Assembly: GCA_038231275.1 (NCBI GenBank) | Contig: JBBRLQ010000029.1 | Span: 37,675 to 101,674 of the forward strand | DNA from: Polyangiales bacterium | GTDB lineage: Bacteria > Myxococcota_A > Polyangia > Polyangiales > Polyangiaceae | DNA: 64,000 nucleotides | Direction of reading: 5' to 3' | Shown here: one piece after another, positions 6,000 to 61,656 of the stretch | Position numbering within the stretch: the first letter of the stretch is position 1 | How the letters are laid out: the number at the start of each line of letters is the position of its first letter | Made by a program: the position numbers and the translations under genes | The notes under the pieces: model-generated | What the model was told of the DNA's origin: nothing | Databases searched by the model: none | What the model saw: only the letters and a program-made list of their open reading frames with translations

Positions 6000-6332
6000 A
6001 TGAACGACCACACCACGACCATGCATAGCGCCACCGATTCGCAGAAGCCCACCCAAGCCGTTTCGCAGGCCGTCTCGCATACCCAGGCCGCTCCGCCGGC
6101 AGGTGACGCGCAGACGGAGCCGCGGCCCAAGCAGCGCCGCGGGTTTGCCGCGATGGATCCGCGTCTTGTCGCGGAAATCGCGAGCAAGGGGGGCAAAGCG
6201 GCCCACGCCGCCGGCACCGCCCACGAGTTCACGGCCGACGAAGCTCGCGCCGCCGGTCGCAAGGGCGGCCTGGCCCCGCACACGCGCCGCCGTCCCGGCA
6301 GCCAGCCGCCCCAAGCGCCTCCGGCGACCTGA
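6000..6332 (+). CDS. KGG-repeat general stress protein (YciG/Con-10-like)
   Basis: RGFAAMDP..EIASKGG...HEFTADEARAAGRKGG. Confidence 0.9.
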   Translation: MNDHTTTMHSATDSQKPTQAVSQAVSHTQAAPPAGDAQTEPRPKQRRGFAAMDPRLVAEIASKGGKAAHAAGTAHEFTADEARAAGRKGGLAPHTRRRPGSQPPQAPPAT

Positions 6333-6358
6333 GCGGGGTTGATCCGGCAGGGTCGGGG

Positions 6359-6736
6359 TTGACCCCCGGCCCGAAAAAGGCGACCAATTCCTTCGTGGGC
6401 GCGTTTCCGCCGGTGCTTGTCGCGCACCCTCACGTGGAGGTGCGAGAAGATCTGCTCTCGGGCAGCCCCGTCGTTCGCGGGACGCGCATCCCCGTTCGCC
6501 GCCTATGGTCCTGGCATCGGCGGGGCATCACGGTAGAGACGTTGCTGAAGCGCTACCCGCAGCTCGGGCCGGCGCGGGTGCTCTGCGCGCTGGCCTTCGC
6601 CTACGACAATGAAGCGCTCATGGATGCCGATCTCGCGCGTGAACGTGCGCTGGTCGGCCCCGCCGCCGACGACATCCCGGGCGCGATGAAGCAAGAGAGC
6701 CTCTTCGACCCCGGCGCGAAGAAGCCAGGGACGTGA
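6359..6736 (+). CDS. DUF433 domain protein (HTH, antitoxin-like)
   Basis: LLSGSPVVRGTRIPV...GITVETLLKRYPQL...ALAFA signature; start uncertain. Confidence 0.85.
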   Translation: MTPGPKKATNSFVGAFPPVLVAHPHVEVREDLLSGSPVVRGTRIPVRRLWSWHRRGITVETLLKRYPQLGPARVLCALAFAYDNEALMDADLARERALVGPAADDIPGAMKQESLFDPGAKKPGT

Positions 6737-6789
6737 TCCAAAGCACGACGTGATCCAGATCACGAACGAAAGCGATCTTTGGCAGGCCG

Positions 6790-9021
6790 CTAGAAGACCG
6801 CCAGTGTGGTGCTCGGCGCGCCCGTCGACAGCGTCGGCGGAACGACGCCCTCGGCGTTCGACAAGAAGAGACCATAGAAGCGCTCGGTCCCGATCCTCTG
6901 CTGGACGACGAAGCGCTGCGTGTAGAGAAAGAGCGGCCGGTAGAACGCGAGGCCGAGCGCGGGCGTCGTCGAGACGAGCTTCTCGTTCGGGTCGACGAGC
7001 GTAGGCCAGATCGGCGGCCGCTTCACCACGCGCGAGCGAACGACGTAGCTCGCGTCGACCGCGAAGTAGTTCGTTCCCACGTACCAGAGCAAGGTCATCA
7101 CTTGTGGCGGGCCGTCCTCGACGCGAACGCCGAGGAGGTGCAGATCGTTCGAGTAGTCGCGCGGCACGCGATCGGTGAGCTGCGCTTCGATCGACTCGCG
7201 CAGCGCGGCCGCGCGGACGCCGTCGCCACGGAGGATCGCGGCGTTGTGGGCGATGCGCCGGTCCTCGAACGTCACAGGCTCTCCCTGCGGCGCGTTCGCG
7301 AGCTGACCGAGGTGGACCCGCCACTCCCAGGTCGCCCACGGATCGTCCTCGCCGGAGACGGTGCGGATCAGATCCGTCGCGAGGCCAAGACGCTCGGCGC
7401 CGACCGGAAGCCGCTCGTCGAGCCTCTTTGCGACGAGCGCGGCCCACGCCATGCTGCGATCGACGAACCAGAAGGGACCCATCGCGGTGATCGCGTACCG
7501 TGACGCGACGGTCCGCAAATCCGACGCCGAGAGCTTGCGGGCGTCGATGACGAGGAGACCCTCGTGCACGTCCTTGGGCGGAGGGTCCCACGGCTTGTCG
7601 ATGAAGGCGATCGGACGATCGGCGGCGTAGGCGACCGCGGGCGTGTAGATGACGCTCGCCGAGACCACCACGCTGGACGTGCGAGGTAGCGACGACGCAG
7701 CCCATTGTATCGCGAGGGCCTTGTCACGCTCGCTCTCCGTGGTTCGCCCTCCCTCGTCGAAGCGCCCCGCCGTGAGGCGCGCTTGCCAGAGGAGCGGCGC
7801 CGCGACGCGCGCCATCAGCGCGAGGGGGAGGAGGACGACGATCCCGACGACCAGCGCAGTCCCTTGCGTGGCGCGCTGCGCACGCGAAGCCTCCGTGCGC
7901 GCGATGGTCCGCTCCCTTGCCTTCAAGAGCGCGTCGGCGAGCGTCGCGGCGCCGAGCGCGATGCCGACACTGGCGACGTGCGGCCAGAAAATGTGCGTGT
8001 CCGCCCCTTGCTTGAAGACGAAATACTCGAACGCCGCCGCCGCCGCCCACGCCGGCAAGACGATCGCGAGCGGATCTCGTCGGAGGAGCCTGGACGTTGC
8101 GACGACGAGCCCCAGACCACCGGCCCACAGACCGATCGGCGTCAGCATCCAGTAGAGCCAGAGGAGTCGCCGCCCGCGGAGCACCTGCACGATCGGAGTT
8201 TCCACCCCGGTCGTGCGGTTGTTGTAGCTGTCGAGGAGATCCTGCATCCGTCCGAGCTTCGAGAAGAGCGCGACGTAAAAGAGGACGCTGCCGACCGTCA
8301 CGAACACCGTGAACGCGAACCACCGCGCGTGCGGCCGCTCTTTGATCCGTCCGAACCAGCGTCGCGGCAACACGTAGGCGCGCGCGAACGAGAAGACGAC
8401 GAACGACGCGACGAGGACCGCGCCGTCCCAGTCGATCTGCGTAACGAGGAGCGCGCCCGCGACCGAGAGCCACATCGGCCGCGCCTTCCACGTCTGCCAG
8501 AAGCGGATCGTACCGAGCGTGAACACCAGCCCGAAGAAGATCGTCGGCACCTCGAGGTTCCAGAAATTCGAGAACGCGAGGTCAATCGGCACGAGCACGA
8601 AGACGACGCTGGCGACGGACGAAGGGACCACACCGAAGAGCGTTCGCGCGACCCGATAGAGGAGCGGTGGCGTCATCGCGCTCACGAGCACCGCGGGGAG
8701 CCGCGTCGCGAGCCAGCCGTGGCCGACGATCTTGTAAAGGAGCGCCGAGATGATCGTTAGACCCCACGGGTGATGCGCGTAGGCGACCTCGGGGCCCGGC
8801 GTGGTCGGGTAGTAGTTGAAGACCGTGGTGAAGCTCTTCCACCGCGCCATCTCCTCGCCCCCGATCACGAACGAGGCTCCGGCGGCGTGATGGCCTGCGG
8901 CGAGGGGTGCGGTAATTTCCCACAATCCCACACACGCAAAGGTCACCCAGGCGACGACGGCCACCTGAAATGCGGTCCGCTCGACCGCCGCGGCGCTCGG
9001 GAGCTCGAACGATCGACTCAA
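6790..9021 (-). CDS. GT-C (ArnT/PMT-like, GT39/GT83) integral membrane glycosyltransferase
   Basis: Multiple TM helices; YAHHPWG, ATRLPAVL..LLY, NLEVPTIF pattern; TTG start at 9021 inferred. Confidence 0.75.
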   Translation of the reverse strand: MSRSFELPSAAAVERTAFQVAVVAWVTFACVGLWEITAPLAAGHHAAGASFVIGGEEMARWKSFTTVFNYYPTTPGPEVAYAHHPWGLTIISALLYKIVGHGWLATRLPAVLVSAMTPPLLYRVARTLFGVVPSSVASVVFVLVPIDLAFSNFWNLEVPTIFFGLVFTLGTIRFWQTWKARPMWLSVAGALLVTQIDWDGAVLVASFVVFSFARAYVLPRRWFGRIKERPHARWFAFTVFVTVGSVLFYVALFSKLGRMQDLLDSYNNRTTGVETPIVQVLRGRRLLWLYWMLTPIGLWAGGLGLVVATSRLLRRDPLAIVLPAWAAAAAFEYFVFKQGADTHIFWPHVASVGIALGAATLADALLKARERTIARTEASRAQRATQGTALVVGIVVLLPLALMARVAAPLLWQARLTAGRFDEGGRTTESERDKALAIQWAASSLPRTSSVVVSASVIYTPAVAYAADRPIAFIDKPWDPPPKDVHEGLLVIDARKLSASDLRTVASRYAITAMGPFWFVDRSMAWAALVAKRLDERLPVGAERLGLATDLIRTVSGEDDPWATWEWRVHLGQLANAPQGEPVTFEDRRIAHNAAILRGDGVRAAALRESIEAQLTDRVPRDYSNDLHLLGVRVEDGPPQVMTLLWYVGTNYFAVDASYVVRSRVVKRPPIWPTLVDPNEKLVSTTPALGLAFYRPLFLYTQRFVVQQRIGTERFYGLFLSNAEGVVPPTLSTGAPSTTLAVF

Positions 9022-9629: not shown

Positions 9630-12600
9630 ATGGGCTGCACGCGAATCGACGAAGATCTCCTCGGTGTTCTCGACGGCACCGCGCACCCCGACCTGATCGC
9701 CCACGTCGCCGAGTGCGACGCCTGCCGCGACGCCCGGCACGAGGCCGGCCGCATCGGGCGCGAGATCGCCCGCGCCGGATCGGACTACACGCCGCTCCCC
9801 GACGTCGCCCGACGCATCGAGGCCCGCCTCGGTGAGGCGCACGGACGCGAGAGCCACGCGCGCCTCCGCACCGTTACCAAGGCACCCGACGTCGTCATCA
9901 CGCCCGCCGCCGGTCCGGCGCGCACGCTCCACTGGAAATCCGCGATCCTCGGCTTCGCGGCGGTCCTCGGCATCTCCGCGGGCGTCACCGTCGGCGTGAA
10001 AGCGGCGGACTGGCAGAAGAGCCCTCGCGCCGCCGCGTCACGCGCGTGGCACGGCAAGGTTGGCAAGGTCACGCGCAGCGGCGCAGACAAGACCGGCGGG
10101 CTCACGGCGACGCTCCTGAACGGCAAGCAGGCGCCGCTCGTCGAAGGGGCAGAAATCAAGGCCGGCTGGCACGTCGTCACCGATCCCCGCACGCGCGCGC
10201 GCATCGATCTCGACGACGGCACGCAGATCATCCTCGATCGCGCGACCGATCTCGAGATCGGCCAGGCGCCGCGCACCGCGTCGCTGAAGGACGGATCGAT
10301 CATCGCCGACGTCGCCCACCTCGACGGCGCGCCGAGCGCCAAGCTGATCGTGCCCGTGGGCAGCGTGAACGTCCTCGGCACCAAGCTGACCGTCACGGCG
10401 ACCGACGATCGCGCGAGCGTCGAGGTCTTGCGCGGCGTCGTCGAGGTGACCGACACGGCCGGCGCCGTGGCGCAGGTGACCGCAGGCCAAGAGGCCCAGC
10501 TCGCCCGCGGCGCGCGCACCGACGTGACGCCCGCCAACGATCTCGCGCAGCGCGTGGCGTTCGAGGGCGAGCTCGGCAGCGGGCTCGGCCACAACGAGGA
10601 CACGGACGGCTCGGTGAGCGGCCTCGGCGAGCTCCGAGCGAAGAAGCCGGGCAGCACGACGGAGAAAGACCGCGCAGTTCGCCTGACCAGCCACTCGGCC
10701 AAAATCCGCGTCGTCGGCAACGTCGCGCGCACTGAGGTGGACGAAGTCTTCACGAACGACACCGACGACGTGCTCGAGGGCATCTACCGCTTCCCGCTGC
10801 CCCCCGGCGCGCAGATCGAGCGGCTCGCGCTGGAGGTCGACGGCAAGCTCCTCGACGGCGAGTTCGTCGACAAGGCCAAGGCCGCGGCGATTTGGCGCGG
10901 CGCGATCCAGAACGCTGCCCCGAAGGCGCCGCGCCCGCGCGAGGAGATCATCTGGGTGCCTGGCCCGTGGCACGATCCGGCGCTGCTCGAGTGGCAGCGC
11001 GGCGGACGCTTCGAGCTGCGGATCTTCCCGATCCCCAAGCACGGGTCGCGCCGCATCGTGATCGCGTACACCGAGACGGTCGCGCCGGTCGCCGGCGTGC
11101 GGCGGTACACGTATCCGCTGCCGCAGTCGACGGCGAGCGACATGAAGATCGACACCTTCGCGCTCGACGTCCAGGTGACGGGCGCCGACCCCAAGGCCGG
11201 CGTGAAGGTGCGAGGTTACGAGCTCGCGCGCTCACAAGGCGGCAGCGACAGCGCGCCCGGGACCGAGCGCTTCGCGCAGACGATGACCGGATTCACGCCG
11301 TCGGGCGATCTCACGCTCGAATACGCGCTGGCCGATCGGGCCACCGACGCCAGCGCCTACGGCTTCGCGGACGGCACCGCGAAGACGAAGGAAGACGGCT
11401 TCGTGGCCATCGCGCTGCGGCCCAAGCTCCCGAAGTGGGCGGACACGAGGCCGCGCGATCAGGTCATCGTCGTCGACTCCGGGCGCTCGATGTTCGGCGA
11501 GCGCTTCAAGCGCGCGCGGCAGCTCGCGGTTCAGGTGATCCAGGAGATGGACCGGCGCGATCGCGTCACGGTCCTCGCGTGCGACGTGACGTGCCGCGCG
11601 ATGCCGGGCGGCTTCAAGGCGCCGGGCTCGGGCGCCGCGCACGATGCGGATGCGTTCATGGCGGGCGTGACGCCGGACGGCGCGAGCGACGTCGTAGGCG
11701 CGGTGCGAGCGGCGGCCGCGTCGACGGGACACGACGCGGCGCGCGACCTTCGCGTGGTCCTCGTCTCCTCGGGGCTCGCGTCTGCGGGCTACCGGCGCGC
11801 CTCTGCGATCGCTCCCGAGGTCAGCGAGGCCCTGCCCGACGGCCGCGCCGAAGTCGTCACCGTGCCCATCGGTGCGGACGCCGATCTCGTCATGCTCGAG
11901 GAGATCGCGCGCGGGGGAGGCGGCGTGCTGGTGCCGTACCAGCCCGGCGAGCGGCTCGAGACCGCTGCGCTCGACGTCTTGAACGCCACGTACGGGACGA
12001 CGCTCCGCGACGTCACGCTGGAGCTCCCTGCGGGCCTCCACGACTCCGCGCCGACCCTGCTCGCGCCCATCCGCGCCGGAGAAGAGCGCATCGTGGTCGC
12101 GCGTGTGACCGGCGATCGGGTGCAAGGCGACGCGACCCTCAAGGGCAAGGTCGGCGGGGAGCCGTTCGAGGCGAAATACCCGCTCGACGTGCGCGTCGTA
12201 GGCGACGCGGGCAACGCGTTCGTGCCGCGCCTCTACGCAGCCGCCCGCATCGCCGACAAGGAGCGCGACGGCGGCGAGGGCGCTCGCGCGGAGCTCGTGA
12301 CCCTCTCGCGCCGCCACGCCGTTCCCAGCCGCTTCACGTCGCTCCTCGTGCTCGAGAGCGAGGCGATGTTCCAAGCGTTCGGGATCGACCGCGCCACGCG
12401 CGCACAGACATGGACCGGCGATCTGGCCGCGACCGGCACCGACGTCGCGACCCTCGCCCCCGCAACGCCGGCCGACGAGGCGCAGGCGCTGAACAGCGGC
12501 GGGCTTGGGCTCGGTCACGGTTACGGCGTCGGCGCAAGCAAAGGCGCGGGCGCAGGCGGCTCGGCACCTGCCGGCGATCTCTCGGATCCACTTCGTTCGG

Positions 12601-58078: not shown

Positions 58079-58861
58079 TCAGAAGGCGACGCCGGCGCCC
58101 GCCGTGAGCGCGCGCTCGCCGGCGAACGCCCACTCGACCGAGACGTCAATCGGAGCGAGCGCGAGGACCACGCCGAGCGCGGGTTGGTAGTGGAATTTGT
58201 CATTGCCGGTGAGCGCCTGGCCACGCTGTGTCCACAAGACCGGACCGCCGAAGATGCGGCCCGCGACGTACGGCGTCACGGGGCCGAAGGTCTTGCCGAG
58301 CGTCAGGCCGCCGCGCACGTCATAAGCGGTGAAGCGCGCGGACTCGCCACGCGGCGACGCCGTGCGCGCGGCCGATGCGCCGGCGCTGATGCTGCCGAGG
58401 ACGAACGGCCAGGCGCCCTTCTCGTCGACGAGCCGATGCGCGTACGCGCCAAAGAAGAGCCACCCGGGACCCATCGCGTGCGACTCGTCGGTGTCGAGGC
58501 TGCCGTCGGCGATGCCCCCCGCACCGAGCTGGGCGACGCCGCGCGCCCCGATCGGCATCTCGCCCGACACGACGACCGCGTGGCGCGAGAAGTCGGCTCT
58601 CACGCCACCATCGAACGCCAGGACCGTGCGCGCGTAGCTATAGGCGACCGCGACGCGCGCGATCGTCTTCGCGCCTCCGTGGCCTTCGTCACCGCCGCAC
58701 GTCGTCACTCCCGTCGGACCGACGGGCGGGGAGAGGCCTCAGGCGAACGCCTCGCGAGGCCGAGCGATCCCGAAGGCGAGGAGCGACGCGAACGACGCGA
58801 CGGCGAGGCGCGCGACGGAACGCGCCGGAGGGTTATGAGCTGCCAATGACCGTGAGTGCAT
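58079..58861 (-). CDS. Putative selenocysteine-containing outer-membrane beta-barrel protein (TGA 58739-58741 = Sec41)
   Basis: Signal peptide ...ASLLAFGIARPREAFA, in-frame TGA, then GLSPPVGPTGVTTC continuing into ORF 58079-58708; amphipathic strands and C-terminal ...AGAGVAF. Confidence 0.7.
58710..58726 (-). promoter_or_regulatory. Candidate bacterial SECIS hairpin
   Basis: mRNA CCCGUC-GGUCC-GACGGG starting 12 nt 3' of the UGA; GGUC at apex as in E. coli fdhF SECIS. Confidence 0.65.
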
Positions 58862-58942
58862 CGCGCGCAGGAGTCTAACACTCAGATATCGTTCAAAAAC
58901 ATTTCTTGTTGCACATTGTCGTACCTCGGACCACATTACCCC

Positions 58943-60361
58943 ATGTTCCGACGCGCCTTCCTCCACGCCCCCCTCCTCTTGATCCTGGGCCTCGCCGCCG
59001 CGTGCAGCGCCGCCACGGAAAACGCGTCGTCCGACGACTCCGATCTCACCGGCGGTGATACCGCGACGGTCGATCTCGCGACGCAGGCGACGACGTCGCT
59101 CTACGTGGCGATCAGCGCGAAGACCTCGTCGAAGGTGACCGACGCCCTGGTCGCGGCGGCTGCGCGCGGCGTGCCCACGCGCGCGATCGTCGTCGACGGG
59201 AGCTTCGACGCGACGTGGACGCTCCAGCAGCACCTTGAGTCGAGCGGCGTGAACGTCGACGTCCGCGCCGCCTCTCCGGCGCCGACGGTCCTCGCGATCG
59301 CGGACGGCACGGCACTCGTCGTGACCGGCAAGACGGTCAAGCGCGAGACCGCGAGCGCCGTGGTCAGCGGCTTCTCGAAGAAGTTCGACGACGCGCTCGG
59401 CGACGGCAGCGCGGCGCGCCCCGGCGCCTTCATCGCGGCGGAGACCGTGAAGGTCCTCCCGATGCCCGATTCCGGCGACGATCGTCTCGCCGAGCTCATG
59501 GCCACCGCGCAGCACTCGATCGACCTGTCGATTTACGAGCTGCAGGAGCGCCGAATGGTCCACGCGCTCCTCGACGCGGCCGCGCGCGGCGTCACCGTGC
59601 GCGTAATGCTCGAGCCTCGCACCGTCGGCGCCGCGAACTTCGATCCGGTCAGCAAGGAGCTCACCGCCGGCGGCGTGAAGGTCACCCCGACGCCGCCCGC
59701 CTTCGACACGCACCGTAACGTCGACCACGCGAAGTTCTGCATCCTGGACGACAAGGAGCTCCTCTACGGGACCGGCAACATGGTCAAGAGCAGCATCGGC
59801 AGCGTTAGCCTCGCGCCGTACCAGCTCCGCGATTTCTGGATCGAGGACGGGCGCAAGGCGAGCCTCACCGCCGCGCGCGCGCTCTTCGATGCGGATCTCG
59901 CGCGGAAGGACACGACCGGCATGGACATGAGCGGGTTCGTGCTCTCGCCCGACAACGCCGACGGCAAGATCACCGCGCTCGTCGACGGCGCCACCAAACG
60001 CCTCCTCGTCTACAACCAGTCGCTCAACGACGCGGATCTCATCGCGCGCCTCATCAAGGCGCAATCGCGCGGCGTCGACGTGCACGTGCTCCTCGGTTAC
60101 CAGCCGGGCTTCGGCGGCGCGCCACCCGCAAACGACGACACGATCAACAAGCTGAAGGCCGGCGGCGTGAAGGCCGCGTACCTCAAGGCGCACTACCTCC
60201 ATGCCAAGGCGATCGTCGCCGACGACAAGGTGTACCTCGGCTCGCAGAACTTCACGAACGGTGGCCTTCGCGCCAACCGCGAGCTCGGCGAGATTTTTGA
60301 CGACGCCACGCTCGTGAAGACGGTCGTGACGACGTTCCAGAAGGACGAGTCCGCGCAGTAG
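58943..60361 (+). CDS. Phospholipase D superfamily lipoprotein
   Basis: HAKFCILD and HAKAIVAD HKD motifs, GSQN..NRE; AAAC lipobox; extra degenerate N-terminal PLD-like domain. Confidence 0.9.
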   Translation: MFRRAFLHAPLLLILGLAAACSAATENASSDDSDLTGGDTATVDLATQATTSLYVAISAKTSSKVTDALVAAAARGVPTRAIVVDGSFDATWTLQQHLESSGVNVDVRAASPAPTVLAIADGTALVVTGKTVKRETASAVVSGFSKKFDDALGDGSAARPGAFIAAETVKVLPMPDSGDDRLAELMATAQHSIDLSIYELQERRMVHALLDAAARGVTVRVMLEPRTVGAANFDPVSKELTAGGVKVTPTPPAFDTHRNVDHAKFCILDDKELLYGTGNMVKSSIGSVSLAPYQLRDFWIEDGRKASLTAARALFDADLARKDTTGMDMSGFVLSPDNADGKITALVDGATKRLLVYNQSLNDADLIARLIKAQSRGVDVHVLLGYQPGFGGAPPANDDTINKLKAGGVKAAYLKAHYLHAKAIVADDKVYLGSQNFTNGGLRANRELGEIFDDATLVKTVVTTFQKDESAQ

Positions 60362-60393: not shown

Positions 60394-61656
60394 ATGGCGG
60401 TCACGCGGCGCAAGGTCCTCCTCTATACGCTCGGCGGCGTGACGGCGGCGGCGGGAGGCGTCTTCGGCTACGAGCGATGGAAGCGCCGGCGCGGCGCGTC
60501 GTTCGTGGGCGCCGAGACGCCGGGCCTCGTCGTGAAGGGCGCGCACGTCGAGACGCGACGGCGGCTGGGGCGCACCGGCCTCGAAATCGGCGTCGTGGGC
60601 ATCGGCGCGGGCGGCCTCATGGGGCCCGATCCGATCCGGCGCGCCGTCGATCTCGGCATGAACTACATCGACACGTCGACCTGCTACGGCGGCAGCGAGG
60701 CGGTCATCGGCCGCGCGCTCCGCGAGTCGCCGGGCCTGCGCGACAAGCTCGTCATCGCGACCAAGTGGGACCCCGGTCCCAAGACGCCGAAGGAGCGCAT
60801 GCTCGAGTCGCTCGATCAGAGCCTCAAGCGCATGGGCACCGACGTGATCGACGTCATGCAGGTGCACTGGCTCGGCGGCGGCCACGTCGAGCACGACGAC
60901 GGCTACGTGCGTCTGGACAACCCCGAGGTGTACGAGGCGATGGAGATCGCCAAGGCGAAGGGCAAGGTCCGCTTCTTCGGCGCGACCTCGCACGACGCCG
61001 CGCGCGCGAAGATCCTCTCCTACGCGATCGACAAGGGGAAGTTCGACATGCTCCTCGTGAAGATGAACGTGCTCGACCACGAATCGGCCGGCATCCCCGC
61101 GCTCTTGGCGAAGGCCAAGGAGAAGGACGTCGGCGTCGTCGTGATGAAGTCGCAGCCGGGCGGCGGCGCGATCCCCAAGGGCTACGAGCAGTCGAAGTGG
61201 AACATCTACCAGTCGAACCTGCGCTGGGCGCTGGAGCACGACGTCGCGTGCGTGGTGCAGTCGCTCATAGGGACCGACGAGGCCTCGCAGGATCTCGCGG
61301 CCTCAGCGACGCAAGACCGCTTCGGGATGAACGACGCGAAGCTCCTCGAGACCTACGCGGAGGCGCTGAGCCCGGACTACTGCCGGAGCTGCGGCGCGTG
61401 CGAAGAGGCGTGCCCGGACGGCGTGCGCGTCGGCTCGGTCCTCCAGTTCGCGATGTACGCCAAGCAATACGGCTGGCCGGCGCGCGCGAAGGAGCACTAC
61501 GCGGCGCTGCCCGCCCACGAGCGCGGGAGCGACGCGTGCGGATCGTGTGGCATCTGCACGAGCGCGTGCCCCTATGGGGTCGACGCCGAGGGGAGGGTGG
61601 TCGAGGCAAAGCGGCTCCTGGGCGGTCATTTGAGGCGCGAGCCATCAAGCAGTTGA
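60394..61656 (+). CDS. Aldo/keto reductase with twin-arginine-like leader and C-terminal 2x[4Fe-4S] domain
   Basis: TRRKVL; RRLGRTGL, YIDTSTCY, ATKW; CRSCGACEEACP and CGSCGICTSACP. Confidence 0.9.
   Translation: MAVTRRKVLLYTLGGVTAAAGGVFGYERWKRRRGASFVGAETPGLVVKGAHVETRRRLGRTGLEIGVVGIGAGGLMGPDPIRRAVDLGMNYIDTSTCYGGSEAVIGRALRESPGLRDKLVIATKWDPGPKTPKERMLESLDQSLKRMGTDVIDVMQVHWLGGGHVEHDDGYVRLDNPEVYEAMEIAKAKGKVRFFGATSHDAARAKILSYAIDKGKFDMLLVKMNVLDHESAGIPALLAKAKEKDVGVVVMKSQPGGGAIPKGYEQSKWNIYQSNLRWALEHDVACVVQSLIGTDEASQDLAASATQDRFGMNDAKLLETYAEALSPDYCRSCGACEEACPDGVRVGSVLQFAMYAKQYGWPARAKEHYAALPAHERGSDACGSCGICTSACPYGVDAEGRVVEAKRLLGGHLRREPSSS

Follow-up and report, generated by a model that had tools for sequence, protein, structure and literature searches.

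A hairpin at fixed spacing behind an in-frame UGA is very likely a bacterial selenocysteine insertion element in a predicted outer-membrane barrel gene of a Polyangiales bacterium

The DNA analysed here, called the window below, is a stretch of 64,000 nucleotides from a Polyangiales bacterium (assembly GCA_038231275.1, contig JBBRLQ010000029.1, positions 37,675 to 101,674). On its minus strand an in-frame TGA at 58739..58741 is followed by a G+C-rich hairpin, and the locus raises the question whether this triplet ends a reading frame or is read as selenocysteine (Sec) with the help of a selenocysteine insertion sequence (SECIS), as a sequence-only reading of the DNA had proposed. We consider it very likely that the hairpin is a genuine, functional bacterial SECIS. 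The proposal is borne out by a homolog column in which TGA alternates with Cys codons, by a covarying helix at fixed spacing, by selection on silent sites and by co-occurrence with the Sec synthesis gene selA.

In the translation, an open reading frame (ORF) of 219 codons ending at 58079 lies in frame past the TGA at 58741-58739. Read with TGA as Sec, the whole gene extends over 58079..58861, with its ATG at 58861, the Sec TGA as codon 41 and a stop TGA at 58081-58079, and yields a precursor of 260 residues. The first 40 codons (58742..58861) encode a predicted signal peptide ending in A-F-A, an A-x-A site of the signal peptidase I type that adjoins the Sec codon. Behind the UGA, a spacer of 12 nt (58727..58738, GGCCUCUCCCCG, codons Gly-Leu-Ser-Pro) leads to the 5' arm CCCGUCG (58720..58726), the apical loop GUC (58717..58719), which with its closing G-C pair forms a GGUCC apex, and the 3' arm CGACGGG (58710..58716), the pairing partner of the 5' arm. 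Read directly from the minus strand, the segments are CCCGUC at 58726-58721, GGUCC at 58720-58716, GACGGG at 58715-58710 and AGUG at 58709-58706, and the transcript given earlier, with its 12-nt spacer, is thus correct to the base. The only refinement concerns the apex, where G58720 and C58716 can also pair; the resulting stem of 7 bp with a 3-nt loop GUC is the form chosen by both RNAfold and RNAalifold.

Judged from the lone sequence, the hairpin is not beyond chance, and it is the comparison of homologs that decides. The 21-nt hairpin alone folds with −11.9 kcal/mol (z −2.18, 6 of 200 shuffles as good), and the 36-nt range 58706..58741, which starts with the UGA, gives a z of −0.26 with 78 of 200 shuffles as good. 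For contexts of 56 and 161 nt the z-scores are 0.19 and 0.14, with 105 and 108 of 200 shuffles as good, and the minimum-energy fold of both is a pairing other than the hairpin. Such stems are cheap because the genome has 69% G+C. Single folds also showed a mini-hairpin GCC-UGA-GGC that encloses the stop codon. It was rejected, since its flanking third positions vary without compensation in the alignment of TGA forms described below, a judgement made without a pair count.

A related-locus search with the single protein as query returned no relative. When 61 related genomes were searched in six frames with stops read through, 25 had a homolog, and in 15 of these it carried exactly one in-frame TGA. 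The 25 mature sequences formed alignment A1, and among 401 sampled genomes of the order a profile search with A1 located the family in 113. The 122 match rows of this search came to 114 after removal of 8 fragment rows; 17 of these lay in genomes already sampled, and the 97 new ones plus the first 25 loci made 122. One locus (L142) was dropped for its degenerate N-terminus, which left 121 placed homologs, with identity to the query falling as low as about 30%. Directly behind the signal peptide, 65 of them have the codon TGA, 43 have TGC, 12 have TGT and one has TCA, corresponding to 65 Sec, 55 Cys and one Ser. All placed homologs have a signal peptide upstream and the barrel downstream of this column, the arrangement by which a selenoprotein is recognised from a Sec/Cys pair. 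On a protein tree calculated with the N-terminal 17 residues excluded, the Sec/Cys/Ser states need 4 changes, against a mean of 40.9 for shuffled states. Of the 55 Cys forms, 45 make up one large clade, 8 belong to a second clade that lies within the Sec forms, and two stand alone; the helix is decayed in each of these groups.

If the TGA were a true stop, left behind in a pseudogene or introduced by an assembly or sequencing error, the gene would be the GTG-started ORF of 209 amino acids at 58079-58708, which stands in a mechanical ORF list of the window, and the hairpin would be there by chance. This truncated form is also how many of the family's database entries have been called. The family profile, run against a library of 1.84 billion proteins, has 519 matches among cluster representatives with E values of 1e-3 or lower; many of them (P0005, P0008, P0009 and others) start at profile positions 3, 13-15 or 26-30, and the ten representatives that were looked up are unnamed or labelled 'hypothetical protein'. 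Gene callers evidently place the start behind the UGA, so that the signal peptide and Sec drop out of the called protein. The same TGA stands in frame behind a signal peptide in 65 homologs from many genera and in 79 further named records, however, and an outer-membrane barrel, the fold indicated by AlphaFold2 and Foldseek, could not be exported without a signal peptide. The comparative data already contradict the true-stop explanation, and we give it a negligible probability. Interpreted as a SECIS, the hairpin would turn a gene that annotation truncates or calls 'hypothetical' into that of a full-length secreted selenoprotein.

Does the hairpin follow the TGA? Its retention in TGA homologs and decay in Cys homologs had been laid down beforehand as the test, and this is the pattern found. 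In each of the 65 TGA forms at least 6 of the 7 pairs are present (mean 6.78), with the stem always 12 nt from the UGA and a spacer of identical length, whereas the 55 Cys forms have on average 3.8 of 7 pairs and at most 6. The local fold energy is −14.9 kcal/mol in the TGA forms compared to −9.1 kcal/mol in the Cys forms. The combination of RNAfold and covariation, which had been suggested as a check, was applied to alignment A2, an ungapped alignment of the 65 TGA forms (61 distinct sequences). In it 97.0% of cells are paired, double-sided, compensatory changes occur in 4 of the 7 pairs, and 0 of 500 shuffles reach the observed value in any of five measures. When the 3' arm was slid along the alignment as a control, pairing was only 30-53%, and RNAalifold recovered the identical helix de novo. 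The 3' arm is thus placed by covariation, by the single-sequence fold and by RNAalifold alike. The element is unusually uniform across the family, with a mean column identity of 77%. In the loop, the first base is G in 65/65 sequences and the second is U in 62/65 and G in 3; the third is C, G or U.

Codon choice within the hairpin was compared with usage elsewhere in the same genes. Gly7, whose third base is the loop U, is encoded by GGT in 62 of 65 sequences against a background of 11.4%, and in none of the 65 by GGC, the background of which is 63.9%. Val6 is GTC in 60/61 (background 52%) and never GTG (0/61, background 41%), and Pro8 is CCG in 53/54 (background 44%). The silent third bases of Pro5 and Thr9 covary as C-G, G-C, U-A and U.G, and the silent pair of Val6 and Pro8 changes to U-A in one sequence. 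Amino-acid changes likewise occur as pair-preserving couples, from V/T to I/M, to A/A and to G/P. These constraints bear on a different origin of the hairpin, as a by-product, with no RNA function, of the conserved peptide G-L-S-P-P-V-G-P-T-G in G+C-rich DNA. Part of the helix does come free with the protein sequence, as synonymous resampling of the peptides alone gives 5.7 of 7 pairs; the 8-member Cys clade, with the similar peptide PPIGPNG, has 4-6 of 7 pairs, and the single-sequence z-scores lie near 0. A mere by-product would, however, have to coexist with third positions fixed against usage, with covarying silent sites, with coupled substitutions and with a motif that goes with TGA and with selA, and we regard this origin as exceedingly unlikely. 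The 5.7 of 7 pairs obtained from the peptide alone mean that protein and RNA constraints are entangled and, together with the Cys clade that retains PPIGPNG, suggest that the peptide may also have a role of its own besides the RNA. With this caveat, the earlier suggestion that PVGPTG is partly constrained by the RNA structure stands, based on the fixed silent sites, the coupled amino-acid changes and the absence of the motif from most Cys forms.

The distribution of the Sec machinery was then compared with that of the TGA. In the 401-genome sample, 61 genomes carry a TGA form and selA was found in 56 of them; of the 47 genomes whose homologs are all Cys forms, none had a selA match (0 of 47). 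The window's own genome carries selB (6159-7253) and selA (7311-8618) adjacent to each other on the minus strand of contig C13, with the tRNA-Sec gene (9965-10057) about 1.3 kb upstream of selA, so that all three lie within about 4 kb (G000:C13:6159-10057); selD is located away from this cluster and has no internal stop. No tRNA gene was found in the window. The co-occurrence with selA speaks against a Sec-independent event at the signal-peptide junction, be it a pause, attenuation or readthrough in which a near-cognate tRNA (Trp, Cys or Arg) decodes the UGA. Stable structures past stop codons can stimulate readthrough in general, and five genomes (G301, G404, G077, G092 and G403) have a TGA form and no selA even at E 1e-3. 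In four of these five, on the other hand, a tRNA-Sec scored over the Rfam cut-off, and in three a selB scored over its cut-off; one selA-less genome, 84% complete, had neither tRNA-Sec nor selB over the cut-off. The residue that alternates with TGA is Cys, the hallmark of Sec sites, and the GGUC apex stands in the register of the SelB-binding loop of E. coli fdhF. Taking these points together, we consider any such Sec-independent event highly unlikely. The selA gaps in the five genomes are probably assembly gaps; a search of the same genomes for SepSecS (TIGR03531) gave no match, and an unrecognised Sec synthase could conceivably serve in them. In another genome (G370:C1:1316582-1317926) selA appears to be split in two; one piece covers model positions 1-248, and the other, which contains an internal TGA, positions 246-453. 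This genome also carries a TGA-form barrel gene and a formate dehydrogenase (FdhA) with TGA.

How does the hairpin compare with known elements? The consensus for bacterial SECIS (bSECIS) elements used in the bSECISearch model, as given in the legend to Fig. 2 of PMC13188914, comprises a loop of 3-9 nt, a stem of 4-16 bp, a minimum free energy of −7.5 kcal/mol or lower, a G in the first two loop positions that is usually followed by G/U (N1-G-[G/U]-N-N2), and 16-37 nt from UGA to loop. The element described here, with a loop of 3 nt, a stem of 7 bp, 19 nt (12+7) from UGA to loop and −11.9 kcal/mol, lies within every constraint named in that legend and shows no structural difference from them. 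The 19-nt distance from UGA to loop is found in 65/65 TGA forms. In the annotated record of E. coli K-12 fdhF, the UGA likewise lies in frame within the coding region with a stem-loop immediately downstream, and GGUC falls on nt 22-25 when the U of UGA is numbered 1, which is the identical register to that seen here and substantiates the canonical spacing claimed earlier. In fdhF 18 nt separate the UGA from the GGUC loop, compared to 19 nt between the UGA and the 3-nt loop GUC here, and the stem begins 11 nt after the UGA in fdhF and 12 nt after it here. In the E. coli element, SelB makes contact with G23 and U24. Owing to the shared register, the corresponding G and U would sit alike in this element, where the G is invariant (65/65 sequences) and the U nearly so (62/65). 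The helix differs from that of fdhF in being a perfect, G+C-rich one of 7 bp (or of 6 bp with a 5-nt loop) without a conserved lower stem enclosing the UGA, and the host gene encodes an outer-membrane barrel instead of a formate dehydrogenase. From this comparison, the element fits the bSECIS class, but not the fdhF subtype, and is expected to work like the fdhF SECIS.

Several observations weigh against the SECIS assignment. Besides the folds of the 36-, 56- and 161-nt contexts, the pairs that the peptide provides by itself, the five genomes without selA and the one among them without tRNA-Sec and selB over the cut-off, these concern the structure and the sampling. The upper stem of the E. 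coli element contains a bulged U that is required by E. coli SelB; no bulge is present in the helix in any of the 65 sequences, and the bulged U has no counterpart here. In Rfam, nothing in the window reached the gathering score, and 58650-58800 gave only noise at E up to 10. Among listed sequencing runs, none from RNA contains the locus. Finally, the homologs are mutually related and the tree needs only about 4 Sec/Cys changes, and because the homologs are kin, the genome counts overstate independence.

We next turn to the protein that would result from Sec insertion. Scans of it against Pfam and NCBIfam gave 0 families at E up to 1. All 121 homologs (121/121) have Ala at position −1 relative to the Sec/Cys column; at position −3 there are 109 Ala, 6 Gly, 5 Ser and one Val. 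Charged or bulky residues are frequent at −2 (R 40, E 13, H 12, F 13), where R, E, H, K or D account for 69 of 121, and an uncharged run of at least 8 residues precedes the predicted cleavage site in 118 of 121. Ala at −1 and −3 with a frequently charged −2 points to a site for signal peptidase I rather than to a lipobox, and cleavage there would make Sec or Cys residue 1 of the mature protein. A lipoprotein with a lipobox L-[AS]-[GA]-C and a lipidated Cys or Sec at +1 was considered and rejected on account of the Ala at −3, the charged −2 and the polar c-region (for example P-R-E-A-F-A). A second Cys, near-invariant in alignment A1 and encoded at 58697..58699, follows 14 residues past the Sec. 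A Cys stands 11-15 residues past Sec in 65/65 Sec forms and 10-15 past Cys in 54/55 Cys forms, and this residue is probably the partner of Sec in a selenylsulfide or a metal site.

AlphaFold2 with alignment A1 gave an all-beta model of about 12 strands (mean predicted local distance difference test score 89.6, predicted template modelling score 0.84) that is uncertain only in the first about 22 residues, the segment that holds U1 and C15. The barrel body corresponds to about residues 29-220 of the model (58082..58657) and ends in Phe, which is the C-terminal residue in 87 homologs. Foldseek retrieved outer-membrane barrels, namely the EstA and NalP translocators, FapF and OmpT/Pla, at E values of about 3e-6 to 1e-5 and TM-scores of about 0.53. 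In a protein atlas, a natural Cys homolog as query led to hypothetical, porin-like, OMP_b-brl and autotransporter-beta clusters. From these models and matches the mature protein is predicted to be an outer-membrane beta-barrel of about 220 amino acids. The 12-stranded barrels of NalP, EstA and FapF are the best structural matches of the model, a resemblance of fold and not a sign of membership; sequence identity to them is 9-13%, and the protein described here has no passenger domain and no Pfam match. In NalP, EstA and FapF an N-terminal segment occupies the pore. Among selenoproteins, precedents for an exported, membrane-embedded form are listed in Table 1 of PMC13188914, where GSU2204/MtrB-PioB (NF041027) and the FCYXU-type TonB-dependent receptor (NF049945) are likewise predicted outer-membrane barrels. 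The protein described here has no sequence relationship to either that the NCBIfam scan could detect; it is small, with about 220 residues and about 12 strands, and has its Sec as the first mature residue, whereas theirs lies in an internal motif. Such a position, at residue 1 of a mature outer-membrane barrel, is unusual for Sec.

The sequence features suggest the following course of events. With the ribosome at the UGA of codon 41, the stem-loop lying 12 nt further on would present its GGUC apex, SelB carrying Sec-tRNA(Sec) would bind there, and the UGA would be read as selenocysteine and not as a stop. Cleavage by signal peptidase I behind A-F-A would then make Sec the first residue of the mature chain, which comprises about 220 residues and would enter the outer membrane as a barrel of about 12 strands. 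Sec and the Cys found 14 residues beyond it, both within the flexible N-terminal segment, would probably act as a redox-active or metal-binding pair. SelB binding, Sec insertion, the cleavage site and the chemistry of the pair are predictions.

Why would these bacteria retain Sec decoding? Among 58 selA-positive genomes of the window's bacterial family, a TGA-form barrel gene was found in 49, compared to 9 with an FdhA-type match over the cut-off that contains a TGA (two candidates were scored per genome). In the window's own genome no FdhA match exceeded the cut-off. The barrel protein thus tracks selA far more closely than FdhA does, which makes the question of what keeps Sec decoding alive directly testable, and cultured carriers exist in Minicystis rosea DSM 24000, Enhygromyxa salina and several Polyangium strains. 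Tentatively, and as a possibility that we hold to be somewhat on the improbable side, we propose an undescribed family with an N-terminal Sec on an exported outer-membrane barrel, in which the free alpha-amine, the selenol and the Cys 11-15 residues on might form a periplasm-facing redox or metal/chalcogen hook or a pore plug; this family, and not formate dehydrogenase, might be the chief reason why many aerobic Polyangia-type myxobacteria keep the Sec machinery.

The near-invariance of the element makes it a simple and highly specific DNA signature. A pattern of TGA plus hairpin occurs in at least 119 species genomes, and 79 of the 80 loci fetched with it belong to the family; the 80 pattern loci were left out of the conservation statistics because they had been selected by the hairpin itself. 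Their records include Polyangiaceae, Polyangium, Byssovorax, Minicystis rosea, Enhygromyxa salina, Kofleriaceae and Haliangiales as well as Myxococcaceae and Archangium metagenome-assembled genomes. The lone pattern match outside the family (L155, an Amycolatopsis sp. record) has no signal peptide and a short frame and was dismissed as a chance match. In the window's own genome, covariance model R1, built from the element, retrieved only this gene (61.4 bits), the next matches having E values above 0.1; none of six weak matches inspected (E 0.10-1.0) has a TGA in a continuous reading frame. A scan of open frames in the same genome for TGA plus hairpin gave 726 matches, mostly noise, and missed the true gene after a filter on third-position G+C content (GC3).

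The barrel family is absent from the 119 families in Table 1 of PMC13188914, a 2026 review. Among the papers listed on myxobacteria and selenoproteins none had a selenoprotein term, and the topic of barrel selenoproteins led only to two reviews that cite the unrelated MtrB/PioB family. Myxobacterial terms were likewise absent from the deep-Sep paper and four of its supplements. The family therefore appears to be undescribed in the sense that it was not found in the literature searched. It would add one more family to the roughly 119 known prokaryotic ones, in Myxococcota, a phylum absent from the selenoprotein literature searched.

Some genomes carry more than one form of the gene. Genome G390 has two paralogues, L102 (G390:C422:22208-23193) and L069 (G390:C434:4129-5111), one with TGA and the other with TCA (Ser). 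The TCA paralogue still encodes PVGPTG, has one C.C mismatch in an otherwise intact hairpin (6 of 7 pairs) and looks like a recent Sec-to-Ser change. Genomes G066, G077, G084 and G092 each contain a Sec form together with a Cys form of the PPIGPNG clade, with an intact and a decayed hairpin side by side. The large Cys clade (for example L029, L034, L040 and L057) has a motif of its own, C-S-L-x-E-H-x-E-E, after the second Cys; the Sec forms are without it and have C-x-G-D/E in its place. The differing motif hints at a different metal or redox environment in the large Cys clade.

The gene neighbourhood gave no functional clue, as 27 flanking ORFs from 14 loci compared with Pfam included no partner conserved beyond the genus. 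In the window, the divergent neighbour at 58943-60361 on the plus strand encodes a secreted, phospholipase D-like protein with two HKD motifs (PLDc_2, 4e-39), which recurs only in a relative of the same genus. Between its start and that of the barrel gene lies an A+T-rich stretch of about 80 nt (58862-58942). Further along the plus strand, 60394-61656 encodes a fusion of an aldo/keto reductase with a C-terminal 4Fe-4S dicluster domain that has an N-terminus resembling a twin-arginine translocation (Tat) signal.

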